Shown: positions 1 through 26,762, counted from the stretch's first letter. The stretch is DNA of 64,000 nucleotides from Halorutilales archaeon Cl-col2-1 (GCA_041891055.1 CP169074.1:992001-1056000); one strand, 5' to 3'. Notes: generated by a model not told the origin, from the letters alone. Translations and numbers: made by a program.

Positions 1-2357
1 CCTAATCCCGAGAAAGACACAGACACAGACCCACCCTCTCTGACATCAACTTCGGAGACATCGGTGTCTATCGATACCGAGGAGTCGCCCGTACTCACGT
101 TATACTCCCCTGGATACGGTACACGCAGAGAGAAACTGCGGTTCTGAGACTCAGTAGACTTCGAGTACACGAACTCTGTCTCGGGTATCTCGACACGTGT
201 TGAGGCTGTCACAGTAGAAGTCGAGTTAGACGAGACGTTGCCCTCTAAGACCGCGCCCTCAACTAAGGCAAACGCCTTCGTACTACCGTCGGAGTAGATC
301 CCTCTGTACCTGCCCGTCCGTGTGTCGAGTCTCGAGAGACGTGAGAAGACCGAGTCCGAGGGCACCGACCCCGACACATACGAGTCGCGGAGGACTACGA
401 ATCCCATCCTGCCGGAGTACTCACTGTAGACATCCTCTGGAGACTGTGACGACACGAATCCGTCGTAGTTACTCCGTGAGAAGCCGTATGACCCCGACTC
501 GCCGTTCACGAAGTAGTTATACATGCGGCTCTCTCCCCAGTTACTCAGAACCCGGTTGTTTGGATAAGACAGGTTGGCGTCGTCGGAGTACTCCTCCATG
601 GCGAGTGCGGCATCGTGCTGTGTCTCATCAGGTACTACCTTGTTGACCTGCACGGGGGTCTGTGCGACGTTTAACCCGGCGACGAGAGAAAACAGGAGAA
701 CGATGTATACAGACGTACTCAGACTCGGCATACTCACACCGGAGATGCCGTCTCCGAACGCCTCGAACTTCTGTGTCAGATCCATAGTATAAGACAGATG
801 CACGAAGCCTATCCCCGACAGAACAGCGAGGAGTACCGACAGCTGACCCGCGAACCTCTGCTGTATCAGAGCCAGAACCGCGAAGTACACTGTATATACT
901 GAGACCACCATCCATCCCTCAGATCCTTCGTCGTTGTCGTAGATGCCTCTTACAACCCACAGGAGATAGCCTATCCCGAGGAGATGGAGTGTGCCAAACT
1001 GTACGAAAGGACCGAAGAACCCGAACTCGCCTATGATCGACTGAGTCTCGACTATGTTACTACCGCTCAGACCCAAGAAAGCCGATATCTCCCCTCTGAG
1101 GCTCTCGGCTTCTTCGGGTAGACCGAACCAGAATCCGAGGGCTCCGGCTGTGAGTATCCCCGTTTCAGTCACAAGTGCCGTCCTCGTCGATCCTCCGACT
1201 CTGTAGACAGCCTCCGACCCGAGACTCAGAGCCACGGCACCTCCTAAGAGATAGATCGGGATATTGGCTACCGTGTCGGTATGCCATCCGTGCACAGAAT
1301 GGACGTAATAAGTGACCGACGACGTCACGAGAAGGGCTAAGAGAATCGGGGAGTTGTACTCAAGCGGAGAGGCTGACTCCGTTGTCGGGTCACGTACCGC
1401 ATTTACGGATCTTATAAATACATAGGCTCCTACCGGTGCTATGAGAGCCGGGCTATGATCCCACGATAGCACCTGTCCCGCAATGGAGAGTCCGAGTAAG
1501 ACGGAGAGTATCCACGTACTGGGCTTTCGGTTTCTTATGTAGTCGGTTCGAGTGTCGGTGTCAGACAGATACACGAGCCCTACGAGGGTAAACGAGAGCC
1601 ACACGTAATCGAATGCGTGGTGATCGGAGAAGCCAAGAGCCGTACGGAGGGCATGACCCGGTATGACAGCAAGCATAACCACAGAAGCTATACCCGCTCT
1701 GGCATCGTCGGTGAGCTTCTTGGCTATGAGATAGACAGAGACACCCGCTATCAGTGCCGAGACGACTGGGTACAGTCCGACGACCAGTAGCGTTGATCCG
1801 AATACCTCCGAGACCGTCCCGAGACTGTACACCAGAAGAGGCTCGCCCTTCTTCTGTCCGAAGCCGAGACTCCCCTCGGAGATGAATCTCTGTGTCCAGT
1901 AGAGGTAAGCGTAGGGATCGTTGCCGAGAAGGACTACGTCGCCCTTTCTGAAGACGGTGGGGTAGAAGTAAGACCGAAACGCTACGATAAGAAGGAATGA
2001 CAGACTGACACCGAGAAGCCAGACACGGCTGATCTCGATATTCAGGTTGGTGTCACGTAACGGGATATCGACGTTAGAATCAGCAGAATGAGTCTCCCTC
2101 TGGATTTCGTCTTGCGACTCTGGTTCTACTGCTGAGACTAGGGAGTCGGTATCGGATACCGAGTATAGACCCGTCGCGGTGTCTTTCTCTATAATACCCC
2201 TCGACACCAACTCGCCGAACTCCCCCGAGTCGAAAGGAGTGTCATCGAAGTCCCACGACTCGTTAGACGAGTCTATCTCTATAAGTTGACGTAGAGAATC
2301 CTCGATATCCGGCTTCTCGTCAAGGAGATCCTCGACCTCCTCACGCATCTCGTCCAT
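1..2357 (-). CDS. Divergent STT3/AglB-like oligosaccharyltransferase (GT-C), 3' end runs off window
   Basis: Missing from the ORF track because there is no stop in the window. Hand translation from ATG 2357 gives multiple TM helices and the motifs GNDPYAY, GFSDHHAFD, NIVETQS and QQRF; the WWDYG position reads VLSNWGESRMYNYFV. Confidence 0.85.
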   Translation of the reverse strand, partial: MDEMREEVEDLLDEKPDIEDSLRQLIEIDSSNESWDFDDTPFDSGEFGELVSRGIIEKDTATGLYSVSDTDSLVSAVEPESQDEIQRETHSADSNVDIPLRDTNLNIEISRVWLLGVSLSFLLIVAFRSYFYPTVFRKGDVVLLGNDPYAYLYWTQRFISEGSLGFGQKKGEPLLVYSLGTVSEVFGSTLLVVGLYPVVSALIAGVSVYLIAKKLTDDARAGIASVVMLAVIPGHALRTALGFSDHHAFDYVWLSFTLVGLVYLSDTDTRTDYIRNRKPSTWILSVLLGLSIAGQVLSWDHSPALIAPVGAYVFIRSVNAVRDPTTESASPLEYNSPILLALLVTSSVTYYVHSVHGWHTDTVANIPIYLLGGAVALSLGSEAVYRVGGSTRTALVTETGILTAGALGFWFGLPEEAESLRGEISAFLGLSGSNIVETQSIIGEFGFFGPFVQFGTLHLLGIGYLLWVVRGIYDNDEGSEGWMVVSVYTVYFAVLALIQQRFAGQLSVLLAVLSGIGFVHLSYTMDLTQKFEAFGDGISGVSMPSLSTSVYIVLLFSLVAGLNVAQTPVQVNKVVPDETQHDAALAMEEYSDDANLSYPNNRVLSNWGESRMYNYFVNGESGSYGFSRSNYDGFVSSQSPEDVYSEYSGRMGFVVLRDSYVSGSVPSDSVFSRLSRLDTRTGRYRGIYSDGSTKAFALVEGAVLEGNVSSNSTSTVTASTRVEIPETEFVYSKSTESQNRSFSLRVPYPGEYNVSTGDSSVSIDTDVSEVDVREGGSVSVSFSGL

Positions 2358-2448
2358 GGTTGAGATTATATCTAGTACGTAGTATAAAACTACTTACAGA
2401 CGTCGTCTATCCGACAGTATCAAAAAACCCCAGACCAATCTCGGTATA

Positions 2449-3285
2449 ATGACCGATATATCCCCTCTCATATCCCTGGTAATCGGCGTATTACAGGGTG
2501 TCTTCGAGTGGCTGCCCATATCGAGCGAGGGCAACATAACCCTGTTTCTGACTGCTTTCACTTCTCTTGAGCCCGACGCTGCGGTACAGCTGTCACTCTT
2601 TCTCCACGCGGGTACAGCCCTGTCTGCGACAGTTTATTACCGCGAAGAAGTTCTGGAGGTTCTGGACGACGTTAAGGACACGTCGAACTGGAGACCTTCG
2701 TCGGCTTTTGAACCACGTAATGCCGAAGCCTGGTTTCTGGGAGTCGCTACGTTTGCATCAGTTGTGACGGGGTTAGCCGCGTATTCGGCTATAATAGAGA
2801 TGGCAACAGAGGTCACGGGAGGTGTCTTCGTGGCGGTGATAGGACTTCTTCTGGTTATTACAGGGGTTCTACAGAGAGTAGCAGAAAGTAGAGGGAGTTA
2901 CGGTTCGCGTGATCCAAACCTCACGGACTCGTTGCTTGTGGGCGGTCTACAAGGACTCGCAATACTCCCGGGAGTCTCACGTTCGGGTACTACAGCGAGT
3001 GCGCTACTTCTACGTGGTCATGACGGTTCTACCTCCCTGCGTCTGTCTTTTCTTATGAGCATACCCGCGGCGTTCGGCGCTGGTGTTCTGACCGTCTTAG
3101 AGACCGGCGGTCTGCCTAGTGTGAGTCCGGTGTCTGCGGTAATAGCAGTTTCGGCGAGTGCCGTAGTAGGATACCTCACCATAGACGCTCTAATGAGGGT
3201 CGTCGAGAGGATAGCCTTCTGGCTCGTCTGTGTGGTCTTAGGGCTCCTCGCGGTCGTCGGCGGATACCTGACGCTCGTACTGTGA
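2449..3285 (+). CDS. uppP: Undecaprenyl/polyprenyl-diphosphate phosphatase (BacA family)
   Basis: QGVFEWLPISSEG and PGVSRSGTT BacA signatures; hydrophobic. Confidence 0.92.
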   Translation: MTDISPLISLVIGVLQGVFEWLPISSEGNITLFLTAFTSLEPDAAVQLSLFLHAGTALSATVYYREEVLEVLDDVKDTSNWRPSSAFEPRNAEAWFLGVATFASVVTGLAAYSAIIEMATEVTGGVFVAVIGLLLVITGVLQRVAESRGSYGSRDPNLTDSLLVGGLQGLAILPGVSRSGTTASALLLRGHDGSTSLRLSFLMSIPAAFGAGVLTVLETGGLPSVSPVSAVIAVSASAVVGYLTIDALMRVVERIAFWLVCVVLGLLAVVGGYLTLVL

Positions 3286-3909
3286 GTCACGCGGCGGCTC
3301 AGGAGGTTCGAGGACTGCGATAAGAAGCTTAGCGGGCTTCGACTCGGCTATCTCGTCCCACGACACGTGGGATCTCACACCCAATACGGAGAGTGAGCCA
3401 ACCCCGAAACGGAGAACAAAGCCGGTATTCGTCAGGTCTCCGAGTACTAGTGAGACAGAAGTGTTGACGAGTACTGAGGCTAGGACGACGAGGCTAATCG
3501 ACCTGACTGTCTCGTCTCGGACGTAAGCGTACGTCTCGGAGACGGTGGCGTGAACTCTCGATCTGACCCACGCGGGGACGAGAAAACTAACGGCTCTGTC
3601 GACCAGCTCTATCAAGGAGCCTACAGTTAGAGTCTCACGTAGATCTATGACCACGACCTCGGGCTCAGGCTCTGCGGTGAGCCATCTGTATAGCCAAGAA
3701 GACTCCGAGACTTCAACCGTCGATCTGCCTATACGTGAGAGCTTAGAACCGTGGACTGCTTTCTCTACGGAGTTGAGTAGATTCTGGAGACGTGACTCGT
3801 CGAATCCGTCTCTGATCGCGTCCGAGATACGTCCAAGCCCTCCGGCGACGGCTGAGCCACGTAATACGTCGATGTCTAAATCTGGGATTCTCGACTCGCT
3901 CCGGGACAT
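3238..3909 (-). CDS. Hypothetical membrane protein, co-oriented with the DUF4330 gene
   Basis: 223-aa ORF with two C-terminal hydrophobic segments; starts 4 nt after the upstream stop. Confidence 0.7.
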   Translation of the reverse strand: MSRSESRIPDLDIDVLRGSAVAGGLGRISDAIRDGFDESRLQNLLNSVEKAVHGSKLSRIGRSTVEVSESSWLYRWLTAEPEPEVVVIDLRETLTVGSLIELVDRAVSFLVPAWVRSRVHATVSETYAYVRDETVRSISLVVLASVLVNTSVSLVLGDLTNTGFVLRFGVGSLSVLGVRSHVSWDEIAESKPAKLLIAVLEPPEPPRDSQYERQVSADDREEP

Positions 3910-3913
3910 CGTT

Positions 3914-5332
3914 CTATCTGATCTGTGTCACTCTGCCGTTGACGTCTACGTTCTCGAACTCGAAGACCACGTCGTTGCCTATCCTGAGTGGCTTGCCGTG
4001 GAACCGTAGCCCTGTCTCAGTGTCGCGTGCGGTCACTCTCAGATTGAGGTAGACGTCCTTGTTTATAGGATGTTGACGCTCGAAGATCTCTCCCGAGTCG
4101 CTGGTGAGTGTAATCTTAGCGGGCTCCACCTCCTTGTCGACTACCTCGGCGAGAGTCCTGCCGCCTATCTCCTCTGACATACCCTCAGAGACCGATTCGG
4201 CGGTTTCAGGTGGGATATTATGTAGTTTTACACGTATACTCTTCTGAGTCGTGTCCTCGGAGAGTGTAGTGGTTCCCGTACTGCGTATATTACCCGTGAA
4301 GCTGTAAGATCCATTCGAGAACGTAACTGAGTTTCCGACTTCTATCCGGGTGTTGCCGAAATAAGTATCTCCCGAACGTTCGATGCTTCTGAGACTCAGA
4401 CCCGTCACGAGACGTCTCTGGTCGGAGTTGCCCGTCGGATAGAGTTCGACCGACTCGACGGTCGCCATCTCCTGTCCACGCACTCCGTACGTGTCACCGA
4501 CTTCGACGAGTTCGGCGGTCTGAGTCGGCACTGTCGACTCAGTCACGACACGAGCCATGGCTGTGGATATCTCCGAGGTGCCGGTCTGGGTTATACTCGG
4601 AGAGATGCTGTAGGAGTCAGTCTCGAAAGGCAGGGACGCTCCGATGGATGTCTGTCTCCCCGCGAAGAGCCTGTCGCCTCCCACAGAGACCGTCTCAAGA
4701 GTCATACCGAGATAGACAGTATTCTGGTTCTGTCCGCCGGGATGTACTTGTAGAGACTCCAAGACTGCGACCTCTTGTCCGCTGACGGTATAAGAGTCTC
4801 CAGCTTCTATGTTTTCTACCAGAGACGACGGGACTGTCGCCGTAGCTACCACAGGGTAGGTCTGAGTATCGAGTGTCGAGCCGTTCTGTCCTACAGATGT
4901 TACAGTACCCTCGACCCCGTACTCGTCGGTCTGTATCGGGATCGTGTCGCCCACACGTAGCCTCGATCCCCCGAACTCGAAGACAGTCTGTCCCTGTGAG
5001 TCCCCTACGAGAAGTCCGTCGAGCTTAGCACGTGCTAAGACAGAGACATTCTCGGAACTCGAAGGACTAGGAGTGGTATAGACATCCGTAACAGTCAGGT
5101 TGCCGTACGAGTTCTCCAAAGACATCGTGTCTCCTTCGGAGATGAGAGATGCGGTGTAGCTTCTCTGTGGGTCGAGTTCAACTGTGACATACCTTGTCGC
5201 CTCGTCTTGTGTCGAGAACGGGTCGACGAAGGCGACCCCGGCGACCACTACGGCTAAGACGAGTAGAACAGCCAGGGCATCGACAATATTTACGACGCCG
5301 AAGAGTCTGCCCTCGTCGTCAATTATGTCCAT
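3914..5332 (-). CDS. DUF4330-like membrane-anchored protein with internal repeats
   Basis: N-terminal IIDDEGRLFGVVNIVD plus TM helix; repeated beta-rich units ending in ..LRVG/LRIG.. Confidence 0.8.
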   Translation of the reverse strand: MDIIDDEGRLFGVVNIVDALAVLLVLAVVVAGVAFVDPFSTQDEATRYVTVELDPQRSYTASLISEGDTMSLENSYGNLTVTDVYTTPSPSSSENVSVLARAKLDGLLVGDSQGQTVFEFGGSRLRVGDTIPIQTDEYGVEGTVTSVGQNGSTLDTQTYPVVATATVPSSLVENIEAGDSYTVSGQEVAVLESLQVHPGGQNQNTVYLGMTLETVSVGGDRLFAGRQTSIGASLPFETDSYSISPSITQTGTSEISTAMARVVTESTVPTQTAELVEVGDTYGVRGQEMATVESVELYPTGNSDQRRLVTGLSLRSIERSGDTYFGNTRIEVGNSVTFSNGSYSFTGNIRSTGTTTLSEDTTQKSIRVKLHNIPPETAESVSEGMSEEIGGRTLAEVVDKEVEPAKITLTSDSGEIFERQHPINKDVYLNLRVTARDTETGLRFHGKPLRIGNDVVFEFENVDVNGRVTQIR

Positions 5333-5368
5333 GTTAGTCCCGAAACCTGCTTGCCTAATTAAAGTTGT

Positions 5369-5782
5369 CTATCCGAGACCGGCTCGTACGAACTTCATCC
5401 TCTTTTTGAGAACGATCCACGTAAGACCGAGTACCGCTCCTATACCGTTGGCTACCAAGTCGCCGAAGCCGAAGTAACGGTAAGGCAGAAACGACTGTAT
5501 GACCTCTATGCCTAAGCCGTATCCGAAGACAACCGAGAAGACTAGGAGCGCCTTGTGTAGAGAACGTCGGTCGCTTTCGCCGACTGTGGCGTACGCCAGG
5601 CTCCATCCGAGACCAGCGTACGCAAGAAAGTGTAGCCATTTGTCGAGTGGAGCGAACTCGGGCTTCGGCATCTCGGGAGGTACAGTTATGACTGATGCAT
5701 AGAAGATGACCGCGGCTACTGCGATTACGCCTAACCAGCGTAGCCACGGAGGTAACAGAGGTACAGGTATCTGTCTCTTCAT
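5369..5782 (-). CDS. VanZ-family membrane protein
   Basis: DKWLHFLAY, IEVIQSFLPYR, DLVAN motifs. Confidence 0.88.
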   Translation of the reverse strand: MKRQIPVPLLPPWLRWLGVIAVAAVIFYASVITVPPEMPKPEFAPLDKWLHFLAYAGLGWSLAYATVGESDRRSLHKALLVFSVVFGYGLGIEVIQSFLPYRYFGFGDLVANGIGAVLGLTWIVLKKRMKFVRAGLG

Positions 5783-5852
5783 CCGGTGTGGAGTGGTTGC
5801 TACAACAACAAAATATATGTCGTTTAACTCCTACTCTAATCCCGGATAAAGA

Positions 5853-7316
5853 GTGAAAGCGAGTCTGAGATACAGGTTTCTGAGAGGTGTGGGTGCAGTC
5901 GTGGCTACCGTGGTCTCCGTAGTTCTCGCTAACCATCCTCTTCTCCAGCGTGGTCTGACGACTTACGTGCCTCTCGTCAACCGTCTTAATCCTGTGGTTC
6001 TCTCCAACGGCGACCTGACTGTCACACTGATGACTACACTCGTGGTCGTACTCGGCAGTCTAATACCCCTCTTCAAGCCGAAGCCCCGGAGAATACTCGA
6101 CACCGTCTTTCTGACACACAAACGGATTCTCGTGGCGGGGTTTGCGCTCGCGGCTATCGGGTACTTCGACTACACGTACGAACTCCCGCGTCCGACTCTG
6201 ATACTCGTCGTGGCTGTCCTGTCGGTCACGTTACCCGCGTGGTTCGTCTACGTGCGTCGGTCTCCCGACACGGCAGAGACAGCGGTACTCGTGGGCAACG
6301 ACATAGAGACTATGAGAGAGATAGTCGAGAAGGATCTTCAGGAGAACCTCGTGGGATTTGTCTCGCCACTGTCTGTCTACTCCCAGATGACGGGTTCGGA
6401 TGTCTCGGTTGCGGACGGCGGCGCGTTTCTGGGTAAGCCCGAGTCGGGTGGTGTGGAGATCGAATGGCTAGGGAGCTTTACACGTCTCGACGACATACTC
6501 GTAAAGACGAACGCCGACACCGCTGTGCTTGCCTTCGTGGACGAGGATCGATCCGACTTCTTCGGGGTCTTAGACACGTGTTACGAACACGGTGTCAAGG
6601 CGAAGGCACACAGAGACCACGTTGACAGCGTTCTGATGAGTAGAGAGTCGGAAGATGAGCTCGTCGATATAGAGCTCGAGCCCATCGATCCACAGGACTA
6701 CGTCTTCAAGCGCGTCTTCGACATCGCCTTCGCGGGGTTCGGTCTGTTAGCTCTGTCCCCTCTGATCGGTGTTATCGCGGCGGCTATAAAGCTCGACAGT
6801 CCGGGTCCTGTGCTGTACGAACAGGAGCGTACCTCGGAGTTCGGTGACACGTTCAGCGTGTACAAGTTCAGGAGTATGATACCTGATGCCGAAGCTGAGA
6901 CGGGCGTTAAGCTCAGCGAGGAGGACGCAGGCGGTGTCGACCCGCGCGTTACGAGTGTCGGCAGAGTGCTACGTAAGACGCATATGGACGAGATACCCCA
7001 GCTTTGGTCGATACTCGTAGGAGACATGACTGTCGTGGGCCCACGTCCCGAACGTCCTGAGTTAGACAAAGAGATTGAGACAGGGATCGTTGAGTGGCGC
7101 AAGAGATGGTTCGTAAAACCCGGTCTGACCGGAGTTGCACAGATAAACGACGTTACGGGTCACGAGCCCGAGAAGAAGCTGAGATATGACCTCGAATACA
7201 TACGTGACCAGTCTTTCTGGCTCGATATCAAGATCGTGGTGAGACAGATCTGGATGGTCGTGGTCGACGCTCTGGGATTCGTCGTGGGTGAAGAAGACGA
7301 CGAGTCTCAAGGATAG
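5853..7316 (+). CDS. Polyprenyl-phosphate glycosylphosphotransferase (WcaJ/WbaP-like priming transferase)
   Basis: KRVFD, YKFRSM, DEIPQL, VGPRP and KPGLTG motifs of the Bac_transf domain after 4 TM helices. Confidence 0.92.
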   Translation: MKASLRYRFLRGVGAVVATVVSVVLANHPLLQRGLTTYVPLVNRLNPVVLSNGDLTVTLMTTLVVVLGSLIPLFKPKPRRILDTVFLTHKRILVAGFALAAIGYFDYTYELPRPTLILVVAVLSVTLPAWFVYVRRSPDTAETAVLVGNDIETMREIVEKDLQENLVGFVSPLSVYSQMTGSDVSVADGGAFLGKPESGGVEIEWLGSFTRLDDILVKTNADTAVLAFVDEDRSDFFGVLDTCYEHGVKAKAHRDHVDSVLMSRESEDELVDIELEPIDPQDYVFKRVFDIAFAGFGLLALSPLIGVIAAAIKLDSPGPVLYEQERTSEFGDTFSVYKFRSMIPDAEAETGVKLSEEDAGGVDPRVTSVGRVLRKTHMDEIPQLWSILVGDMTVVGPRPERPELDKEIETGIVEWRKRWFVKPGLTGVAQINDVTGHEPEKKLRYDLEYIRDQSFWLDIKIVVRQIWMVVVDALGFVVGEEDDESQG

Positions 7317-7336: not shown

Positions 7337-8740
7337 TTATAATATTTCTCTCAAGGTATCGAGGTCATAAAGTCGGACGTCATCCCTCTCTTTCGCCGTG
7401 TCTCTGAGATCCCGGCTGAAACCCGACCTAGAGAAGAGAGCGAATGTCTCGTCTCTGTCCTCGCCTCCCCATCTGACTTCGGACGACTTCTTCTCAAGTC
7501 TTCTGAGGAGATCGGCGTCCACCTGTCTCTCCGTCCACTTACACTCACCCAGGAGAAGACTCGCCTCGCTCTCGTCGAGACCTACTACGTCAATCTCGTT
7601 CTCTCCATACCACCAAGATCCGACTGACGAACCGTCGAACATAGACGAGTTAGCTACGGCTTCTCTACAGATGTCTTCGAATACCCTGCTCGTGTACACG
7701 TCTATACCCTCTCTTACTGTGTCGAGAACCATCTCGACTGATCCCCTTTCGAGGTCATCGAGGTTGGGGTACACGAATCTGAACCAGAAGCTGAAGAAGT
7801 TGTCTTTGATCTCGTAGATCCCTCTCTTCTTTTTCTTCTGAGACGCTGTGACAGGCACGGACTTCTCGACTAGATCGAGGCTCTGGAGCTTCTTGAGGTA
7901 CCTCGACATGTCCTTAGCCTCTCTGTGTGTCGAGTTAGCTATCTCGGTTACTGTCGTAGCCCCGAACGACATCGCTTCGAGTATGTCCATATAGCTCGAA
8001 GGCTCCCTCAACTCCTGACGCAGGAGAAACTCGGGCTCTTCGTAGAGAAAAGTGCCCTTCGACAGAATCTCGTCACGTATGTTCTCGAAGAGACCTCTCT
8101 GAGGATCGAACTTCTCGAGGTATGCCGGTATGCCTCCGAGAACGCCATATGCGCGTATCTTGTCATCGAACGGATACTCGGAGTCGGAGAAGAAATCAGT
8201 GCTGTCTCCGAACTCTAGGGGACGAAGCCTCCACTGTCCGGTTCTTCTGCCATAGAGGGGACTCTCGTAGCTAAGGACATCCTCCTCCATCATGGATATC
8301 GATGAGCCAAGGAGAACTAGCGATATCTGTGTGTCTTTCAGAATCTCGTCCCAGATAAGCTGAAACACTGACGGTACCGAGTCATCCTTTTCGACGAGGT
8401 ACGAGAACTCGTCTATCACGACGATAAGCTCGGTGTCATGACTTCTCTCACGTATGTACTTGAAGCAGTCGTCGAAGCTATCGACATCAGGCGGTATGTC
8501 GTCGAAATGTTCTGAGGCGTCTTTGGCGAGTCTCCGGGCATTAGACGAGGTGCCTCTCTGGTCAGCTAAGAAGTATATGCTCTGACTGTCGGGGACTTTT
8601 TTCTGAGTAACGTGGTTAATCAGCTCCGTCTTGCCGACTCTTCGACACCCATAGATAACGAGTAACTCGCGGTCGTTGGATCCGAGCTTCTCCTCAAGCC
8701 ACCCGATCTCCTCGTCACGGTTTACAAACTTTCGGATCAC
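7337..8740 (-). CDS. Archaeal ATPase + wHTH + DUF234 PD-(D/E)xK domain protein (likely GTG start)
   Basis: FVNR, YGCRRVGKT, IDEF, SPLYGRRT, EIDVV..GECKW. Confidence 0.88.
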   Translation of the reverse strand: MIRKFVNRDEEIGWLEEKLGSNDRELLVIYGCRRVGKTELINHVTQKKVPDSQSIYFLADQRGTSSNARRLAKDASEHFDDIPPDVDSFDDCFKYIRERSHDTELIVVIDEFSYLVEKDDSVPSVFQLIWDEILKDTQISLVLLGSSISMMEEDVLSYESPLYGRRTGQWRLRPLEFGDSTDFFSDSEYPFDDKIRAYGVLGGIPAYLEKFDPQRGLFENIRDEILSKGTFLYEEPEFLLRQELREPSSYMDILEAMSFGATTVTEIANSTHREAKDMSRYLKKLQSLDLVEKSVPVTASQKKKKRGIYEIKDNFFSFWFRFVYPNLDDLERGSVEMVLDTVREGIDVYTSRVFEDICREAVANSSMFDGSSVGSWWYGENEIDVVGLDESEASLLLGECKWTERQVDADLLRRLEKKSSEVRWGGEDRDETFALFSRSGFSRDLRDTAKERDDVRLYDLDTLREIL

Positions 8741-8763
8741 GATTATATAATCGTAGTCCGAAA
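8730..8763. promoter_or_regulatory. 34-bp palindrome over the ATPase start, putative operator
   Basis: tttcggatcacgattat|ataatcgtagtccgaaa, 2 mismatches. Confidence 0.55.
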
Positions 8764-8799
8764 AGATAGATGTTTCGGGACAGCAGTTCAATAGTTTGT

Positions 8800-8938: not shown

Positions 8939-10234
8939 TCACCACGTCAAGCCTTCGTATACGATGTCATCTCTGGGTTCGATGACTCGCCGTCCGTCGA
9001 CTACCACTTTCTGGTTCATCGCATCGAACTCGTCGTCAAGTGCCGCGAACTCGTCCCAGTCGGTGACGACTACTGCGGCGTCGGCGTCTTCGAGTGCGTC
9101 CTCAGCCGAGTCAGCGTAATCGATGTCGCCGAAACGCTCTCTCATGTTGTTGACTGCGACGGGATCGTATGCGACTACCTCTGTGTCTCTGTCTCTGTCT
9201 TTGAGACCCTCTATCACGGGTATCGCACGTGAGTTTCTTATGTCGTCTGTGCCCGGCTTGAAGGAGAGTCCCAGGACGGCGACTCTCTTATCCACAGGAT
9301 CTATATGTTTATCAAGTAGCTGGAGGAGACGTTTTGGCTGTTTATCGTTGACTTCGACGGCGGAATGTAGCAACGAGGGATCGTATCCTTTCTCCTCGGC
9401 GGCGGCGATGAGTGCCTTGACGTCCTTCGGGAAACAGCTACCTCCCCAGCCTACTCCACTTCTCAGAAACTCCGAGCTTATGCGATGATCGAGTCCTATA
9501 GCGTCGGCGACCTCGTAGGCGTCGACTCCGTACTCCTTACAGATGTTGCCGAGTTCGTTTATGAGACTGACCTTCGAGGCGAGGAAGGCGTTGTTGGCGT
9601 ACTTGATCATCTCCGCCTCTCTAACTCCCGTCTCAACTACTGGTACGTCGTCGTTGCGTTCTACGAGAGGATCAAAGACCCGTCTTAGCTTCTCGTTGTC
9701 TTGGTTCTGCCCGAGAACTATCTTGTCAGGATGTAGAAAGTCGTCTACTGCGGTGCCTTCACGTAGGAACTCGGGGTTCATCGCCACGCTGAATTCTTCT
9801 CCTTCTTCTTTGTCCGAATTTTCTTCTATGATCGGGGTGAGAACCTCCTCGGTCGTACCAGGCACTACGGTACTCTTGACTACGACTGTGTGGCTGTCAT
9901 CCTTATGTCCCAACGCCTCGCCGAGTGACTCCGCTCCCTTCTTCATGTAGGTTAGATCGATACTGCCATCGTCGTTCGACGGTGTGGGGAGAGCGAGAAA
10001 CGTCACCTCGGTGTCGTTGACGGTACTGTAATCCGTCGTCGCTGTGAGACGGTCGCCGCCGTGTTCGGCTATAAGCTCATCCAACTGAGGCTCGTGTATA
10101 GGTGCTTCTCCCGAGTTTATGCTCTCTACTACGTCTTCGTCTATGTCTATGTTCGTAACTTCGTGTCCGAGGTCGGCGAAACACGCTGCCACCGTCGTAC
10201 CCACGTAGCCGCTCCCTACGATGCTTATCTTCAT
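8939..10234 (-). CDS. aglM: UDP-glucose 6-dehydrogenase
   Basis: [24 protein letters not shown]. Confidence 0.95.
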
Positions 10235-10320: not shown

Positions 10321-10770
10321 TCACTCCCAGAACGATCTGACACGAGAATCCAGTTCATCTATCACTAGAGTCAAAACCTCTCGCCAGTCATTCGAAAAAT
10401 CAGCATCCTCCCCGGGCTTCTCTGCTACTGGTGGTGGGTGAAAATGGTCTCTCGTGTTGTGGCTGTTGGGGTGTCTGTCCCATCGACACTCCCAAGTATT
10501 ATCGTTATTATGTTGCTCTCTGTAGTGGACATTAAAGTCGTCTGTCTTGTACCATCGAATCTGTATATATGCAGTTTGGATATGTGAGGGGAAGTATCCT
10601 AAGTTGTATTCAGCAATTACCGAGTTGGGTGATCCTTTGGGACGAACCTCGACATCGGAGAAACGCTCACTCCCTGAAAGATATCCTCCTATCCGATCAA
10701 GAACATCGGTGTCTATCGACGCCACGTCTTTATCGGTTAGTTCGTCATCGGACTGACCTCTGTCAGGCAT
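10321..10770 (-). CDS. Putative toxin-like partner (RWDRHPN..HFHPPP family)
   Basis: Overlaps the HTH gene; paralog at 12140. Confidence 0.7.
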   Translation of the reverse strand: MPDRGQSDDELTDKDVASIDTDVLDRIGGYLSGSERFSDVEVRPKGSPNSVIAEYNLGYFPSHIQTAYIQIRWYKTDDFNVHYREQHNNDNTWECRWDRHPNSHNTRDHFHPPPVAEKPGEDADFSNDWREVLTLVIDELDSRVRSFWE

Positions 10771-11344
10771 TTATACCAGTATCAGTATCAGTACCCAGAC
10801 CGCCGCTTGTTTTTTCTTCACGCAGTGCTGTCTCAAGCAGTTCAGCACGTTCTTCGAGAGTCTGCCACTCAGAAAGGTCGTCCCATAGATCCTCAACTGT
10901 AGCTGTTTCACTAGCTTCTTTTAACGAGACTTCTCCCGGTTCATCTTCTCCGAACCTTTCTCGGTACTCTCTGATTGAGTCGATGGTCTCTTTGAGTTCA
11001 TCTAGTATCTCTTCATCGGAGTGATGGCTTCGTATCTGTTCGACTTGACGCCAGCGGAGAAAGGACTCGTTTCTCTCGTACTGTGTTGGTCTGTTACTGT
11101 GTTTTCGTACCAATCCCAGATCAGCAAACCAGTCTAGGTAGTCTCGTGCTGTCTCTGTGTCACAGCCTGCATGTTCTGCAATACTTGAGACTTTTGTAGG
11201 CTCACGTACCTGCATTATAACATCCATCAGACGCTCCCTGGTTGATCCTCCTTCAAACATCTCTTCGGGATCCTCCCAGTTACTGAAGTCCGGCTTTTCA
11301 CCATCCGGTCTAGATCTATCCGATATGTCTGTCAAATCCCTCAT
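10763..11344 (-). CDS. wHTH + coiled-coil protein, putative antitoxin/regulator
   Basis: KVSSIAEHAGCDTETARDYL HTH; paralogs at 12603 and 52677. Confidence 0.8.
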   Translation of the reverse strand: MRDLTDISDRSRPDGEKPDFSNWEDPEEMFEGGSTRERLMDVIMQVREPTKVSSIAEHAGCDTETARDYLDWFADLGLVRKHSNRPTQYERNESFLRWRQVEQIRSHHSDEEILDELKETIDSIREYRERFGEDEPGEVSLKEASETATVEDLWDDLSEWQTLEERAELLETALREEKTSGGLGTDTDTGINA

Positions 11345-12602: not shown

Positions 12603-13166
12603 TCAAGCTGTCGACTGTGTCCTCTCAGTGTCAGTACCTTCATCCGAGAACGTCAGAACCTGCTTGAACGCAAGAGCCGTCTTTGCTATAGCTAGATTCT
12701 CCCGCTTGGTTCTCCATTCTGAGACCACAGTCGGTATATCCATCTCGCCCTCATTCTCTCTCTCATCCATCTGAATTATGAGATCCTCGGGAGTCTCAAC
12801 CCCGTATTCTTCTCTGTATTCATGTATCTCGGATCTCATCTCCCTTATTCTGTCTTCTATCTCGTCTCTAGAGTAGGAGGAGCTGATATTTCTCACTCTC
12901 CTCATCTTCTCGGAGGACTCGTCCCATCTATAGAGCTTAGCACCTCCTCTCTCATCGATCTGTACCTCGTTCATCTCGTGAAGCCTACCGAGATACTTTC
13001 TCGCCGTGTTTGGGCTGACGTCAGCGGTTTCAGCTACCTGTTTTGCCTTCATCTTGTCACGACTGTTTCTAATCACGTCTCTGACTCTCTCGAATCCGTC
13101 TGTACTCTCTGACCATTCTCGTTTTACACGCTCGTTTATGTCCTCTGTGTCCTGTGGCATATACAT
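12603..13166 (-). CDS. wHTH + coiled-coil protein, putative antitoxin/regulator
   Basis: AKQVAETADVSPNTARKYL. Confidence 0.8.
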   Translation of the reverse strand: MYMPQDTEDINERVKREWSESTDGFERVRDVIRNSRDKMKAKQVAETADVSPNTARKYLGRLHEMNEVQIDERGGAKLYRWDESSEKMRRVRNISSSYSRDEIEDRIREMRSEIHEYREEYGVETPEDLIIQMDERENEGEMDIPTVVSEWRTKRENLAIAKTALAFKQVLTFSDEGTDTERTQSTA

Positions 13167-15114: not shown

Positions 15115-16509
15115 CTATGAAGAAGCTGAGAATATCTGATCTAGCTTTTCTATGTCGACCAGTGTCCATGTCTCCCCAGCCTCATCGAGGAGGTCTCGAG
15201 TGAAACCACTCTTCGAGAAGAGTACGTACTCCTCGTGACGCTCGTTGTTGTGCCATCTGACCTCGTCTGACTTGTTCTCTAAGTCACGCATGAGGTCGGT
15301 ATCCACCTTACTCTCTGTCCATTTACATTCACAGAAGACAGTACTCTTACTCTCCGGGTTGAGTCCGACGATATCGATCTCATATTCCTTGTACCACCAC
15401 TTACCCATCTTCGAGTAACTGTCTCGAAGCATACCTTGCCTGTTCATCTTCCACAGAGCCTCCGTGCATACCTCTTCGTATGTTTTGGAGACAAACCTAT
15501 CAAGCCGAGGCTGTATGTTGTTCTCAAGTACGAGTTCGGGGGACTCCTCTATGCCTGATCTGTTTGGCTCTATGAACCTAAACCAGAAACGTAAGAAGCT
15601 GTCTTTTATTTTATAGATAGATCTCTTCGATTTTTTCTTGTCTGCGGTCACCGGTACGACCCTTTCGATCAGGCGGATACGTCTAAGCTTCTGTAAATAG
15701 TTGGACAACGGACCAGAACCGATATCCGTCTGACCTGAAATCTCGTTAGGAGTCGTATGTCCGTTAGCGATCGCTTCCAATATACTCATGTACCTCGATG
15801 GGTTTCTGAGTTCTGTGCGTAGCAAGAACTCCGGCTCATTATACAGTACAGAGTTCTTCGAGAGATGGTTTTCAAGGAGATTCTGGCTAAGTGAGTTCTC
15901 GTAGTCGAAGAGCTGTAGGTACATAGGTGTCCCTCCCGTAGTAGAGTAAGACCGTACTGCGTCAACCATACTGTAGTCGATAATACTGAGTGAGTCTGAG
16001 AAGCTGAACGGCTTGAGATCAATCTGGGCGGTTCGCCTCCCGTAGAGTGGACTCTTGTGTCCCATGACGTCCGACTCCATGACACTGATAGACGAACCAC
16101 ATAAGATTAACATCGAGTCCATGTCTTCTGAGTTCTCGTCTATAACAGACTGAAGGCTCGAAAGAACCGAGCTGTCTGATCCTATCAGATACGGGAGTTC
16201 GTCAATAGCGAGTACTATCTTTTCCTCGGAGAGTTTCTCGCCTACGTAATCTATGGCATCGCTCCAGCTCTCGGTTCGGGGGACACGCTCGTTGAAGTAG
16301 TCGACTATGTCTTCTATGAGCTTCTCTCTCTGTAGCTTCTCGGAGTCCTGGGAGACTAGGTGGTATATATGAGGTTTGTCCTCGCAGAACTTCTTGATGA
16401 GCTCCGTCTTTCCAACGCGTCTTCTACCATATAGAACTACAAAACTGAATCCATCCGAACTGTATTCCTCTTCGAGTGTTCTGAGTTCAGAGTTCCTGTT
16501 GTGAAACAT
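15115..16509 (-). CDS. Archaeal ATPase + wHTH + DUF234 protein (second paralog)
   Basis: MFHNR, YGRRRVGKT, IDEL, EIDIV..CECKW. Confidence 0.9.
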   Translation of the reverse strand: MFHNRNSELRTLEEEYSSDGFSFVVLYGRRRVGKTELIKKFCEDKPHIYHLVSQDSEKLQREKLIEDIVDYFNERVPRTESWSDAIDYVGEKLSEEKIVLAIDELPYLIGSDSSVLSSLQSVIDENSEDMDSMLILCGSSISVMESDVMGHKSPLYGRRTAQIDLKPFSFSDSLSIIDYSMVDAVRSYSTTGGTPMYLQLFDYENSLSQNLLENHLSKNSVLYNEPEFLLRTELRNPSRYMSILEAIANGHTTPNEISGQTDIGSGPLSNYLQKLRRIRLIERVVPVTADKKKSKRSIYKIKDSFLRFWFRFIEPNRSGIEESPELVLENNIQPRLDRFVSKTYEEVCTEALWKMNRQGMLRDSYSKMGKWWYKEYEIDIVGLNPESKSTVFCECKWTESKVDTDLMRDLENKSDEVRWHNNERHEEYVLFSKSGFTRDLLDEAGETWTLVDIEKLDQIFSASS

Positions 16510-16510
16510 T

Positions 16511-16539
16511 ATTATCGTAATAATCATTATCGTGATAAT
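16511..16539. promoter_or_regulatory. Tandem palindromic operator-like boxes
   Basis: attatcgtaataat-c-attatcgtgataat directly upstream of ATG 16509. Confidence 0.55.
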
Positions 16540-16633: not shown

Positions 16634-16987
16634 TTAGCTAACTCCGAGGCTGAGTTTCAGAGCATCATCGATCTCCGACATCGTGGACGAGTCGAGGCTA
16701 CCGACCACCGACTCGATACGGCTTTCTACCGACACAGTCCGTATCTGATCGAGACGTACCGACGAGTCCTTCTCGAAAGGAGAACCCGACGCCTCGACAA
16801 AGACCTCGAAGGGATACTCCCTGTATGTACCTGTCGCAGGGGCGACGATAGTAGTACTCGAGTTTCTGTTACCCACGTCATTCTGTACGACCACGGCAGG
16901 ACATGTCTTTTTCATCTCGTTGCCCTCAGCAGGATCGAGACGAACTATAACAACATCACCTCTCCTTATCTCTATGTCGTCGCTCAT
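16634..16987 (-). CDS. mazF: PemK/MazF toxin with catalytic Arg changed to Cys
   Basis: RRGDV..LDPAEGNEMKKTCPAVVVQND; family consensus has RP. Confidence 0.88.
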   Translation of the reverse strand: MSDDIEIRRGDVVIVRLDPAEGNEMKKTCPAVVVQNDVGNRNSSTTIVAPATGTYREYPFEVFVEASGSPFEKDSSVRLDQIRTVSVESRIESVVGSLDSSTMSEIDDALKLSLGVS

Positions 16988-17217
16988 TCTTCGAGACTTT
17001 CCCACGCTTCGTCCGAAGTCTCAGTCCACTCCTCAGCAATACTCTCCGCAGTGTCAGAGGCATCTCGGTACGCCGACGCAAGATATTCCTCGTCGACGTC
17101 TGACTCGACCTCGACGATAGCAACAGTCACACGTTTGTTGGCGTACTCAGTCCCCAGATATAGCCTACCTCTGTCGTCCGTCTCGTTTGTCTGGAGTTCG
17201 TCTGCATCTACTTCCAT
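16984..17217 (-). CDS. Antitoxin of the MazF pair
   Basis: ETDDRGRLYLG swapped-hairpin-like N-terminus, acidic tail, ATGA overlap. Confidence 0.75.
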   Translation of the reverse strand: MEVDADELQTNETDDRGRLYLGTEYANKRVTVAIVEVESDVDEEYLASAYRDASDTAESIAEEWTETSDEAWESLEE

Positions 17218-19275: not shown

Positions 19276-19548
19276 ATGTCACTGAACCTGGGCGATGCCG
19301 TTCGGAATTCTCTTCTATATCGGGCAGTGTCACAGTTTCTGATCTGGTCAAAGCATAGTAAGATGGCACGTCTGCTTGGGAACGAAAGGGTTCTTGCCGC
19401 GATTATCGCTATCGGATTACTGGGAAGTATCTTCAGAGTCCTGAGTTCGGGTATGCAGGCTCCGGTCAAATTCTTGAGTTTCGCGCTGCTTTTTGTCATA
19501 ACCGTCGCGTTGACGTGGAACTACACCGAGCCACTCACGGACGAGTAA
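19276..19548 (+). CDS. Small two-TM membrane protein
   Basis: 90 aa from ATG 19276 with two hydrophobic helices. Confidence 0.55.
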   Translation: MSLNLGDAVRNSLLYRAVSQFLIWSKHSKMARLLGNERVLAAIIAIGLLGSIFRVLSSGMQAPVKFLSFALLFVITVALTWNYTEPLTDE

Positions 19549-20673
19549 CTCCCAACGCTGTATAACAGGCAGAGCAAACACGACTAACAAGAAGTCGAAA
19601 ACGATCCGGTGGCGGACATTCGTCCCGAAGTTTGAGTTGATTGTTCCATATCCGACGATGCCGGCGAGGTATATAACAACTAGAAATACTGCAGCCGTCT
19701 CGTCAGGCCTGCATTCGTACAGCGATCGGGCTGCACCCACGAAGAGAAATATAAGGGCTATGGAGACGGTGAAAGCCAAGAAGTGAAATACAGACTCGAC
19801 GTGCAACGGAAATGGAGCGAATTGGAAATAGATAGCCCTTGCCGGAGCAGCGAGGAGAAAATCGAACCAGGAGGTATACTCCATTCCATCGAGATATACT
19901 GCTCCGCCTCTCGATCGCCCAACCATTTGCGCGTTTGCACGCTCGAACGAGTAGAGAACTTCTGCGAACAGCCCGAATCCGATCACACCGACAGTACCGA
20001 TAACTGCTGTGAGTGACGTGAGCGACAAATCGACCGTAGTAGTACGAACCAGTTTGACGATCACACTTGCTATACTGCCAAGCACAAACACGAGCGAAAG
20101 TTCAGGTCTCAATAGGTATAGCATTCCCCAGAGTGGAACGGCAACGAGTACGGGCTTCAGCTGATGTGACAGGAGTGTACTGAGGCCGAGACTGAGGAGT
20201 GAGAAAAATAGCAGAACAGACAATGCATCTCGCATTGGGAGACTGAGGAACAGAAACTGTAGCGGTGCAAACAGAACGATAAGCATCAGACCGAGATGTG
20301 ATTCCCTTCGTGACGGATACAGTTGGCGGGCGATAGACGAGATCGGTACCACTGTCAGAACACCGAATAATCCGTTAAATATCGCGACTGTTTCAGGTTG
20401 TGGGCTAAATACGGTGTACGTAAGCGCCTGGAACCCTCCGAACGAACTCACAGTCGAGGATCCAGATGTAAACGTCCCTGCTGCAATTTCGCTCGCAGTC
20501 TGGTGAAACTGAGCAATATCCCATCTATAGGGTAGTCGAGGAAGTACCACTAACGCAACGAAGACGTGACCAATGAATGCAGTGATCGCTATTGGTCGAT
20601 ACCAGGGCAGATCAGTGTATTGTGCCACGAGTAGGAGTGAGACGAACGCCATTCCGACAGCTAAAAGTATCAT
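19417..20673 (-). CDS. Polytopic membrane protein, Wzy-like polymerase/GT-C candidate
   Basis: About 10 TM segments, MRD and NFGTNVRHR loops, glycan-cluster context. Confidence 0.7.
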   Translation of the reverse strand: MILLAVGMAFVSLLLVAQYTDLPWYRPIAITAFIGHVFVALVVLPRLPYRWDIAQFHQTASEIAAGTFTSGSSTVSSFGGFQALTYTVFSPQPETVAIFNGLFGVLTVVPISSIARQLYPSRRESHLGLMLIVLFAPLQFLFLSLPMRDALSVLLFFSLLSLGLSTLLSHQLKPVLVAVPLWGMLYLLRPELSLVFVLGSIASVIVKLVRTTTVDLSLTSLTAVIGTVGVIGFGLFAEVLYSFERANAQMVGRSRGGAVYLDGMEYTSWFDFLLAAPARAIYFQFAPFPLHVESVFHFLAFTVSIALIFLFVGAARSLYECRPDETAAVFLVVIYLAGIVGYGTINSNFGTNVRHRIVFDFLLVVFALPVIQRWELLVREWLGVVPRQRDGYDKKQRETQEFDRSLHTRTQDSEDTSQ

Positions 20674-25451: not shown

Positions 25452-26762
25452 ATGGAGGTCATTCGCACGGTCAAGGTCAAACTCGACGTGCCTGACCAGC
25501 GACGGGACGACCTTCATCAGACCGCCGACCAGTTCCGCTACTGCGCCAATCAGACCAGTGAGTGGGCGTGGCGCGACTCCTCGGACGAATACTGCGTCAC
25601 CAGCAAAGCGAAAGCCGAAGACGCTCTCTACGACCGTCTTCGAGACGAAACCGACCTCACCGCCAATCTCGTCCAGAAAGGGATTCGGCGGGCTATTGAG
25701 GCAGTCAAAAGCGGTGTCGAAGCGTGGAAACGAGGTGACCGCACCAGCCAACCACACTTCGATGCGTGGAGCATCGTTTATGACAAGCGAAGCGCCACCT
25801 TCCACCGCGACCGTGTGTCCCTCTCGACCGTGGATGGACGAGTCGAATGCGAGTACGTCCTACCCGACAACACGGAGGGGACGCCGATTGGTGACTACCT
25901 ACTGAACAAGAACTTCGAGTTCCGAATGTCCACGCTCCAGTACGACCGCTTCGAGGACGAGTTCTACCTCCACGCCCGCATGAGACACACCCCAGAAAAT
26001 GGCGAAGAAGAGCGTTCAAGTTCGGACACGCACAGTGAGAACCCGACGGTTCTCGGCGTGGACTTGAACGTTGACGGCTACTTCGCCGTCACCAGCACGG
26101 GTGCGTTCATCGAATCAGCGGACTACCTCAACCACCGTCGGCGTGAGTTCGAGCAGACCCGTGGAAGCCTCCAAGAGACAGGCACACGGTCGGCGCATCT
26201 GACCATCCAGCAGATGAGCGACCGCGAACACCGCTGGATACAGGACGTACTCCACTCGGTTGCGAACGACATTCTCCGCGAAGCTCGTCGGGTGGACGCG
26301 ACTCATATCGCGTTCGAGAACCTGACGGGTATCCGTGACCGCATGGTGAACGCCAAGCGATTCCACGCGTGGGCGTTCCGCCAACTCTACGAGTACGTCG
26401 AGTACAAAGGTGAAGCCGAAGGCGTGACTGTCGAACAAGTGAGTCCTGCGTACACGAGTCAGCGGTGTTCGAAGTGCGGATGTACGCTGGAGGAGAATCG
26501 CCCGTCGAAACACGAGTTCTGCTGTCAGAAGTGCGGGTACGAACTCAACGCCGACTACAACGCGAGCAAGAACATCGCTCGCAAACTCGCCAAGGGTCTC
26601 CGCTCGGGGCAAAAGTCTCCGAGTGGAGGAGCCACCTATCAACTGGCTCTAACGTCGGGGACGCTGAACCTGAACGGCGATTTCCACGCCTCCGACCGTG
26701 TGTCGGCAGAAGGGGAGTCCACCGACAAACCCCATCGTGAACGAAAGTTCACGAGCCTCTGA
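25452..26762 (+). CDS. tnpB: TnpB RNA-guided nuclease
   Basis: RuvC GVDLN / AFENL / NADYNA; zinc finger CSKC..CQKC. Confidence 0.95.
   Translation: MEVIRTVKVKLDVPDQRRDDLHQTADQFRYCANQTSEWAWRDSSDEYCVTSKAKAEDALYDRLRDETDLTANLVQKGIRRAIEAVKSGVEAWKRGDRTSQPHFDAWSIVYDKRSATFHRDRVSLSTVDGRVECEYVLPDNTEGTPIGDYLLNKNFEFRMSTLQYDRFEDEFYLHARMRHTPENGEEERSSSDTHSENPTVLGVDLNVDGYFAVTSTGAFIESADYLNHRRREFEQTRGSLQETGTRSAHLTIQQMSDREHRWIQDVLHSVANDILREARRVDATHIAFENLTGIRDRMVNAKRFHAWAFRQLYEYVEYKGEAEGVTVEQVSPAYTSQRCSKCGCTLEENRPSKHEFCCQKCGYELNADYNASKNIARKLAKGLRSGQKSPSGGATYQLALTSGTLNLNGDFHASDRVSAEGESTDKPHRERKFTSL

Follow-up and report, generated by a model that had tools for sequence, protein, structure and literature searches.

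An STT3-like gene at the edge of a glycosylation locus

The stretch of DNA analysed here (the window) comprises 64,000 nucleotides from Halorutilales archaeon Cl-col2-1 (GCA_041891055.1 CP169074.1:992001-1056000). At its start, on the minus strand (3..2357), lies a gene for a protein of the STT3/AglB fold, which we named STT3L. N-glycosylation across Archaea, Bacteria and Eukarya depends on a single enzyme family and a single rule, N-X-S/T, which is read by the WWD motif of the oligosaccharyltransferase (OST); STT3L has no such motif. Next to it are genes for a UppP/BacA-type polyprenyl-diphosphate phosphatase, a 223-residue protein, a DUF4330 protein, a VanZ-like protein and a large phosphoglycosyl transferase (PGT), followed by a sugar island. 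An earlier note, made from the sequence alone, had proposed that this locus encodes a second, lipid-pyrophosphate-based glycosylation system whose transferase acts on a non-sequon acceptor, a reading that our analysis supports in part. The five genes that it named (STT3-like, UppP, DUF4330, VanZ and PGT) are all present.

The STT3L reading frame encodes 785 residues before the window edge cuts off its C-terminus, and since homologues measure 770-800 residues, it is nearly complete. The protein exceeds the Pfam cut-offs for STT3 (37.8 bits vs 24.5) and AglB_L1 (28.8 bits vs 23.6), and by Pfam, hidden Markov model and Foldseek comparison it has the architecture of the STT3/AglB/PglB OSTs, a multi-pass GT-C membrane domain with an extracytoplasmic C-terminal domain. 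The AlphaFold 2 (AF2) model of STT3L, with a predicted local distance difference test (pLDDT) score of 84.4 and a predicted template modelling (pTM) score of 0.77, found the Archaeoglobus fulgidus AglB (AfAglB) structure 7e9s_A as its top Foldseek match (E 6.9e-23, TMq 0.64); four AfAglB entries ranked first, ahead of eukaryotic STT3, DPY19, PglB and ArnT. A family profile built from 20 members matched A. fulgidus AglB-L (3waj) with an E value of 5.6e-35, pairing GNDPYYY with GNDPWYY, GFADHHAFD with GFNDHHIWE, GIAE with TIAE, and QVRFAG with QNRFAY. AfAglB-L (PDB 3WAJ, 5GMY, 7E9S) is thus the best match of STT3L in both sequence and fold, sharing the NDPY, DHH, TIXE-type and Q-x-R-F motifs and the C-terminal peripheral beta domain (AglB_L1), although identity in the fold alignment is about 16-17% and residues 452-675 of AfAglB were left unaligned by HMMER. 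STT3L differs from it in lacking WWDYG and in carrying an extra, predicted cytoplasmic N-terminal domain of about 80 residues. Canonical haloarchaeal AglB (TIGR04154; Haloferax volcanii AglB, Halobacterium salinarum VNG1068G) shares its superfamily and organisms with STT3L, and sugar-nucleotide genes adjoin. Against the NCBIfam model TIGR04154, STT3L scored 134.7 bits, short of the cut-off of 450, and aligned over residues 189-566 only; judged by these profile scores, it is distinct from canonical haloarchaeal AglB.

Translation of the window DNA confirmed the positions of the motifs, all encoded on the minus strand. These are NDPY, with the catalytic Asp D147 of the first external loop (EL1) (1911..1922, aligned with GNDPWYY of AfAglB-L); DHH, the second metal-binding motif, with D245 and H247 (1617..1625, aligned with GFNDHHIWE); I435-V-E437, the TIXE-type motif of the fifth external loop (EL5) (1047..1055, aligned with TIAE); and QQRF, with the conserved R501 (852..863, aligned with QNRF). 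At the place of WWDYG in OSTs stands SNWGESRMYN (516..545), an instance of the family signature S-x-W-(G/S/D)-x-N-R-x-Y-N.

The protein begins with an acidic domain (residues 1-80, 2118..2357, minus strand), delimited by conservation and the AF2 model, from which a disordered linker runs to about residue 108. The earlier note had described an extra acidic domain of about 100 residues, and residues 1-108 indeed hold 33 Asp/Glu against 7 Lys/Arg. W35, F37, G45, F47 and G48 were invariant in sets of 20 and of 21 sequences, and the 80 residues were modelled confidently as H-H-H-E-E-H (pLDDT >90). By OST topology, this domain would be cytoplasmic. No Pfam family matched it at E<=10 except two chance-level rows, and no PDB fold matched it at E<=0.001; the best weak match had an E value of 0.32, and with winged-helix domains among the weak matches, "winged-helix-like" is only a lead from the model. 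The weak matches also include the C-terminal domains of the archaeal ATP-binding proteins 3h92, 3bjo and 2qen (E 0.3-1.6, not significant), which we take to be members of the ATPase_2 + DUF234-type ATPase family found in the window.

Residues 1-50 of STT3L (2208..2357) are identical at 50 of 50 positions to the closest database homologue, P0001, and every later block of 50 residues has 18-33 identities. This collapse of identity after residue 50 suggests that the gene is a mosaic and that a recombination break lies close to residue 55. A comparable break has been described within aglB of Hbt. salinarum (PMC7002104; here and below, papers are cited for the parts of their text that were available).

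Conservation of the catalytic core and absence of WWD

Conservation was counted over the window protein and 315 homologues of at least 740 residues, aligned to the family profile (n=316). The catalytic positions were nearly invariant, with N146 in 316 sequences, D147 in 315, D245 in 316, H246 in 315, H247 in 307, E437 in 314, R501 in 316 and F502 in 315. STT3L therefore has the EL1 acidic motif of OSTs together with the second D-x-H/D motif, as well as the Glu of TIXE/SVSE in EL5 with an Arg after it. What it lacks is the OST motif WWDYG/WWDXG: none of the 316 family sequences has WWD at positions 606-608. Instead, this place reads Y-V-(F/L)-S-x-W-(G/S/D)-x-N-R-x-Y-N in the family, with S605 in 294 sequences, W607 in 313, R611 in 310 and N614 in 316. 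R611 and N614 are new invariants, and W607 is the sole residue of the WWDYG place that is kept. Position 606 is variable, and position 608 is Gly in 201 sequences, Ser in 65 and Asp in 32. In the AF2 model, a strand covers residues 603-604 of this region, and a helix starts at 607. A pattern scan for WW[DE][YWFN]G found it in no open reading frame (ORF) of more than 300 residues in the window or in 80 related loci (see below). The earlier claim that the catalytic motifs are kept while NWGES takes the place of WWDYG was thus borne out by translation, by alignment with AfAglB-L and by near-invariance over the family.

In the structures of PglB and AglB, the WWD motif hydrogen-bonds the +2 Ser/Thr of the sequon, and the Asn carboxamide is the target of the EL1 Asp and the TIXE Glu. 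Retention of D147 and E437 together with loss of WWD makes a linkage to Asn without a sequon the most likely one. Our reading, with a probability of roughly 0.55, is that STT3L is a functional second OST of the STT3/AglB (GT-C) family, which has kept the catalytic machinery, lost the WWD that reads Ser/Thr, and moves a lipid-pyrophosphate-linked glycan to a non-sequon acceptor, most likely Asn. The motif in question is described as WWDXG, common to AglB, PglB and Stt3 and with a role in the mechanism (PMC11407970).

Among species-representative genomes there were 203 pattern matches, 186 of them encoding an STT3L relative, and 80 of these 186 loci were kept for analysis; all are from Halobacteria save one metagenome-assembled genome labelled Methylophaga. 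A profile search of 1.84 billion representatives (50% identity) gave 2625 matches at E<=0.001, of which 437 reached E<=1e-30, and the best 150 of the 2625 were all full-length family members (E<1e-222). The STT3L family is large and, in the searches made, almost only from Halobacteria. Six copies are plasmid-borne, all six matches of the plasmid search being of the STT3L type, and Salinibaculum rarum and Halorientalis persicus have two copies each; the plasmid-borne copies and the two-copy species mark STT3L as an accessory gene. In a FastTree tree of 80 rows (Shimodaira-Hasegawa-like support only, midpoint root), genera formed coherent clades and families were interleaved, with the window protein sister to P0001 (support 100). 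No paper describing the family or naming VNG0005H, its Hbt. salinarum member discussed below, was found in the literature searched, which left out most subscription journals, and the available parts of PMC5898192, PMC4973528, PMC10384203 and PMC5867893 do not mention the family.

C-terminal extensions of the LamG/laminin-G jelly-roll type occur in many members (about 960-1060 residues in all, a few longer; e.g. P0029, P0047 and P0079, or L003 and L005), and the window STT3L has none as far as the window reaches. LamG folds often bind carbohydrate, and the extension may serve as a carbohydrate- or acceptor-binding module.

Gene neighbourhoods of STT3L

Synteny was assessed by tblastn of the window proteins against the 80 loci (E<=1e-3, within 10 kb), and counts are given for those 58 in which STT3L has at least 8 kb of sequence on either side. 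The PGT was found in 41 of the 58 loci, within 600 bp of STT3L in 12; UDP-glucose dehydrogenase in 32 (3 within 600 bp), VanZ in 18 (12), the 223-residue protein in 14 (4), DUF4330 in 13 (2) and UppP in 7 (1). Either PGT or UppP was present in 45/58 loci, and none of the six window genes in 3/58. When all 80 loci were taken at E<=1e-5, PGT was counted in 49, UDP-glucose dehydrogenase in 36, VanZ in 18, the 223-residue protein and DUF4330 in 16 each, and UppP in 9. ORF clustering, with the commonest clusters annotated, revealed as further neighbours an NAD epimerase (34 loci), a sugar nucleotidyltransferase (29), a family 4 glycosyltransferase (GT4; 21), YdjM (15), GlmS (13) and a sulfatase-like protein (10). 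Of the linkage to both uppP and the PGT that the earlier note had expected, the part concerning the PGT thus held and the part concerning uppP did not. Its suggestion that DUF4330 and its partner are accessory subunits also lost ground, as they occur in only 13-14 of the 58 loci and are not obligate; together with VanZ, they are probably optional companions of STT3L.

Two of the loci (L006 and L012), both from Halorussus aquaticus NZ_CP100400.1, are separated by about 55 kb spanning the start of the circular chromosome. Their STT3L genes are near-identical and their neighbours equally spaced, which reflects a large duplication or else overlap in the assembly. On a plasmid of Salinigranum rubrum, RefSeq annotates STT3L, UppP, a sugar transferase, a glycosyltransferase (GT), an ABC transporter and an "O-antigen ligase family" protein, with two S-layer-like PGF-CTERM proteins upstream. 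We also considered whether gene context could identify the acceptor, and rejected this, as there was no general linkage: S-layer-like or PGF-CTERM genes occur in 4/80 loci, and gene context therefore does not indicate the acceptor. In two S-layer or S-layer-like glycoproteins adjoining STT3L (L067, 120..2549, and L019, 121..2733, both on the minus strand), the likely A-x-A cleavage site is followed by G-N-I-D and V-N-T-A. The Asn at mature position 2, which is not in a sequon, recalls Asn-2 of the Hbt. salinarum S-layer protein, the cleavage sites being guessed. Two further neighbours (L081, L015) have no such Asn at mature position 2.

In the window itself, STT3L and UppP are divergent with a gap of 91 bp. 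UppP (2449..3285, plus strand) matches Pfam BacA PF02673 (169 bits, cut-off 33.4, E 2e-49) over positions 2-256 of the 257 in the profile, and stays below the bacterial NCBIfam equivalog cut-offs (e.g. 141 bits vs 354). BacA recycles lipid pyrophosphate. The VanZ, DUF4330 and 223-residue genes form a tight row on the minus strand, 36 and 4 bp apart. The VanZ-like small membrane protein (5369..5782) matches Pfam at 42.6 bits (cut-off 30.1, E 1.1e-10). The DUF4330 protein (3914..5332; Pfam 124 bits, cut-off 27.6, E 8.5e-36) is anchored by one N-terminal transmembrane (TM) segment and has a large repeat region outside the cell, with all four sequons that the earlier note had listed (NLT78, NVS95, NGS150 and NGS340). 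In the Atlas it resembles DUF4330 clusters only, one bacterial cluster being fused to GT4, and the word DUF4330 is absent from the literature searched. The 223-residue protein (3238..3909), the usual partner of DUF4330, is predicted to have a single TM segment and matches nothing in Pfam or NCBIfam; its Atlas look-alikes are unnamed archaeal clusters. Divergent from VanZ across 70 bp is the PGT (5853..7316, plus strand), a large polytopic enzyme of the WbaP/WcaJ type with a TM block in residues 7-135 and a catalytic domain at 286-470; it is a Bac_transf member (PF02397, 200.3 bits, cut-off 27, E 2.4e-59), and scored 279.7 bits against TIGR03025, just under the cut-off of 295.55. Bac_transf enzymes move sugar-1-phosphate to polyprenyl phosphate, and thereby make a lipid-pyrophosphate-linked sugar.

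Downstream of these six genes is a sugar island of about 40 kb with low GC content (39-47% at about 20-42 kb), which holds a UDP-glucose dehydrogenase, several GT4 genes, rhamnose genes, FdtA/DegT amino-sugar genes and an FkbM-type methyltransferase. The dehydrogenase, of the UDP-glucose/GDP-mannose dehydrogenase family (8939..10234, minus strand), is a conserved neighbour of STT3L. Two sulfatase-family proteins (Pfam Sulfatase; 35079..36503 and 39090..40403, minus strand), with a GT and a FemAB-like gene between them, are probably glycan sulfotransferases by analogy with the sulfatase-like VNG1056C and VNG1057C, for which this function has been shown (PMC11980604). The product of the window cluster is thus probably a sulfated, methylated glycan with uronic acid, rhamnose and an amino sugar.

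The downstream Wzx, PglK-like and Wzy-like genes reported in the earlier note fared unevenly. The PglK/MsbA-like gene, an ABC exporter with a fused TM domain (43409..45232, minus strand; ABC_membrane + ABC_tran), is present. The Wzx/MurJ-type flippase is present in two pieces (28663..29349 and 29247..30071, minus strand), with Polysacc_synt matching the N-terminal half and MurJ the C-terminal half; the two ORFs overlap by about 100 nt in separate frames, owing either to a frameshift, which would make it a pseudogene, or to an error of sequencing, and the ABC exporter may be the working flippase. As for the Wzy, a multi-pass membrane protein (19417..20673, minus strand) with 14 partly overlapping hydrophobic segments is a possible polymerase; since it has no family match even at E<=1, the label "Wzy-like" is a guess. 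Of the parts of a Wzx/Wzy pathway, the window thus contains a PGT, a split Wzx and a candidate Wzy that has no family match, and no chain-length regulator was recognised in it.

The island also contains two ATPase_2 + DUF234 proteins (7337..8791 and 15115..16527, minus strand) and three scattered DUF7342 winged-helix paralogues (10763..11344, 12603..13166 and 52677..53183, minus strand). Inside or beside it are two TnpB/Cas12f-like genes (25452..26762, plus strand; 51050..52285, minus strand), a MazF/PemK-type toxin ORF (16634..17005, minus strand) and a PIN-domain ORF (59150..59539, plus strand). The low GC content and these genes are consistent with a horizontally exchanged glycosylation island.

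Halobacterium salinarum and the acceptor of STT3L

Non-eukaryotic N-glycosylation was first found in Hbt. salinarum. A search with the Hbt. noricense family member found a 773-residue STT3L in this species, VNG_0005H (AAG18648.1, "hypothetical protein", in strain NRC-1; CAP12885.1 in strain R1). It aligned end to end with the window STT3L (32% identity, E 2e-93) and carries NDPY, DHH, IVE-T, QVRF and S-R-W-S-R-N-R-L-Y-N. The canonical aglB of Hbt. salinarum is VNG1068G, deletion of which abolishes the tetrasaccharide (PMC6591318, PMC11980604). STT3L and canonical AglB therefore coexist in Hbt. salinarum, and the second STT3 enzyme beside a canonical AglB that the earlier note had supposed is seen in at least one species.

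The PGT orthologue of Hbt. salinarum (AAG18652.1 in NRC-1; CAP12889.1 in R1) is four accession numbers from STT3L, an offset repeated in 10 further strain pairs; given serial numbering, three genes would lie between the two. In Halobacterium sp. CBA1126, the order is S-layer glycoprotein, insertion sequence (IS) element, PKD protein, STT3L, GlmS, an archaeal GlmU-type enzyme and PGT, with the S-layer glycoprotein scoring 932.9 bits against TIGR04216 (cut-off 400). The NRC-1 genome has a glycosyltransferase-rich "AT-rich island" at 10,857-72,451, with S-layer glycoprotein and sugar nucleotidyltransferase genes "nearby and upstream" (PMC7002104). If the low gene number of VNG_0005H means the first kilobases, it would lie between these S-layer glycoprotein and sugar nucleotidyltransferase genes; the available part of PMC7002104 does not name VNG_0005H.

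This arrangement bears on the repeating-unit glycan at Asn-2 of the Hbt. salinarum S-layer protein, which is assembled on dolichol pyrophosphate (Dol-PP) and blocked by bacitracin, and whose attachment stays intact when Ser-4 is changed to Val, Leu or Asn (PMC2952790, 2010). According to the same review, genome sequencing had given only one OST gene. Whether AglB handles the repeating-unit glycan is "still not clear" (PMC6591318), and of its assembly "virtually nothing is known" (PMC11407970) or "nothing is known" (PMC12624080, 2025), as far as the available parts of these papers go. The features of this pathway, namely the Dol-PP carrier, bacitracin sensitivity, GalNAc-Asn linkage, dispensable +2 Ser and sulfated acidic repeats, fit, circumstantially, a gene set of PGT, GlmS/GlmU, UDP-glucose dehydrogenase/epimerase, a sulfatase-like protein and a WWD-less OST. 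VNG_0005H has the profile expected of the missing Asn-2 enzyme, because it is a second STT3 gene without the Ser/Thr reader near a PGT that forms lipid-pyrophosphate, and because its sister-species counterpart lies near UDP-HexNAc and S-layer genes. We thus regard VNG_0005H as a candidate transferase for the Dol-PP-linked, bacitracin-sensitive, Ser-independent Asn-2 glycan. A wider and more tentative proposal, which we would not yet favour, sees in the STT3L family the "second" archaeal OST that has long been postulated: VNG_0005H, the PGT four genes away and the GlmS and GlmU-type genes would place the sulfated, GalNAc-linked repeating-unit glycan, built on Dol-PP and sensitive to bacitracin, on S-layer Asn-2 without a sequon, and the family would provide haloarchaea with sequon-independent N-glycosylation for polymer-type glycans, swapped between strains and plasmids. 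The glycan of the window cluster, with its rhamnose and 3-amino-dideoxy-sugar genes, is probably different from the Asn-2 glycan. The AglB-independent low-salt pathway of Hfx. volcanii is a separate matter; a single Haloferax strain, Atlit-6N, appeared among the STT3L homologues listed.

For the family in general, we propose the following pathway. The large WbaP/WcaJ-type PGT would load sugar-1-phosphate on dolichol phosphate to give a lipid-pyrophosphate-linked primer, which cytoplasmic glycosyltransferases, sulfatase-like sulfotransferases and a methyltransferase would build into an acidic or sulfated unit. The unit would be exported by a Wzx or ABC-type flippase, possibly with polymerisation, and STT3L, as the presumed terminal transferase, would then move it from lipid pyrophosphate to an extracellular acceptor without requiring N-X-S/T, most likely an Asn of a surface protein. 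A UppP-type phosphatase, encoded nearby or elsewhere, would recycle the released lipid pyrophosphate. On the best reading, the glycans so moved are often acidic or sulfated, and the family is probably a WWD-less clade of AglB-type transferases serving lipid-pyrophosphate glycans. Canonical AglB, by comparison, uses dolichol-monophosphate glycans and sequons (PMC5867893, PMC11407970), whereas STT3L is linked to a PGT that forms lipid pyrophosphate. Campylobacter PglB, whose fold matches the STT3L model at E ~1e-6, is closer in this respect, being an STT3-family OST that uses a glycan on polyprenyl pyrophosphate, for which a PGT of the Bac_transf family is the priming enzyme and the ABC transporter PglK the flippase; however, PglB carries WWDYG and has an extended sequon (PMC2952790), and STT3L has neither.

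Several points weigh against the reading of STT3L as a sequon-independent OST. The equivalence of S-x-W-G with WWDYG follows from position and order, in a region that HMMER left unaligned to AfAglB, and with Asp at 608 in 32/316 sequences, some members may retain part of the pocket. There is no PGT within 10 kb in 17/58 loci, UppP is near STT3L in only the 7 noted above, and S-layer-like or PGF-CTERM genes are within 10 kb in only the 4/80. The neighbourhood counts stand without a control set of canonical aglB loci, and include both L006 and L012, which look like duplicates. Listings for many Halorubrum species include PGT orthologues with 65-73% identity to that of Halobacterium, yet no Halorubrum STT3L was found among the best 80 loci or two lists of the best 120 homologues; the PGT therefore does not require STT3L, and its family seems wider than that of STT3L. 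Finally, recent reviews, in their available parts, call the repeating-unit glycan only "reportedly" present.

Loss of the +2-reading motif would also suit a ligase for a lipid, another glycan or Ser/Thr, transferring a lipid-pyrophosphate-linked polymer much as WaaL or PglL do. These ligases, which make the terminal transfer of a Wzx/Wzy-made lipid-pyrophosphate glycan to an acceptor without an N-X-S/T sequon, are functional analogues from unrelated families, whereas STT3L is a true STT3 homologue. Such a role would agree with the bacterial-style Wzx/Wzy-like context of PGT, flippases and possible polymerase, with the RefSeq "O-antigen ligase family protein" in the L081 cluster, and with the LamG-type extension of many members. 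It is nevertheless unlikely, as D147 (315/316) and the TIXE-type E437 (314/316) are near-invariant and correspond to the residues that act on the Asn carboxamide in OSTs, the nearest structures are all N-OSTs, and the Dol-PP glycan of Hbt. salinarum is linked to Asn (PMC2952790). The preference of the earlier note for an O-linked, glycan or lipid acceptor is weakened by the near-invariance of D147 and E437 and by the same Asn precedent without a +2 Ser (PMC2952790), and sequon-independent N-linkage seems at least as likely.

The AglB fold, the catalytic residues, the retained second Trp, the Asp at 608 in 32/316 sequences and neighbours resembling agl clusters (UDP-glucose dehydrogenase, nucleotidyltransferase, GT4) could also be those of an ordinary AglB paralogue that modifies N-X-S/T sequons with another glycan, as is thought for several A. 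fulgidus AglB paralogues. We consider this quite unlikely, given that WWD occurs in 0/316 members, that the score of STT3L is far under the cut-off of the canonical AglB model, and that WWDXG is common to AglB, PglB and Stt3 and mechanistic (PMC11407970). Very improbable is a non-transferase, that is, a degenerate OST serving as a scaffold, as a sensor through the cytoplasmic winged-helix-like domain, or as a polymerase. Such an N-terminal cytoplasmic domain is not usual in OSTs, and it is strongly conserved, but the metal-binding and catalytic residues are near-invariant over 316 diverse sequences, which is not expected of a pseudo-enzyme.

A sequon-free OST would, if true, be of interest for glyco-engineering, and a large natural clade that keeps the catalytic core without the WWD reader would demonstrate a way of redirecting an OST. 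In Hbt. salinarum, the position of VNG_0005H near a PGT makes the decades-old Asn-2 question open to direct test by gene deletion.

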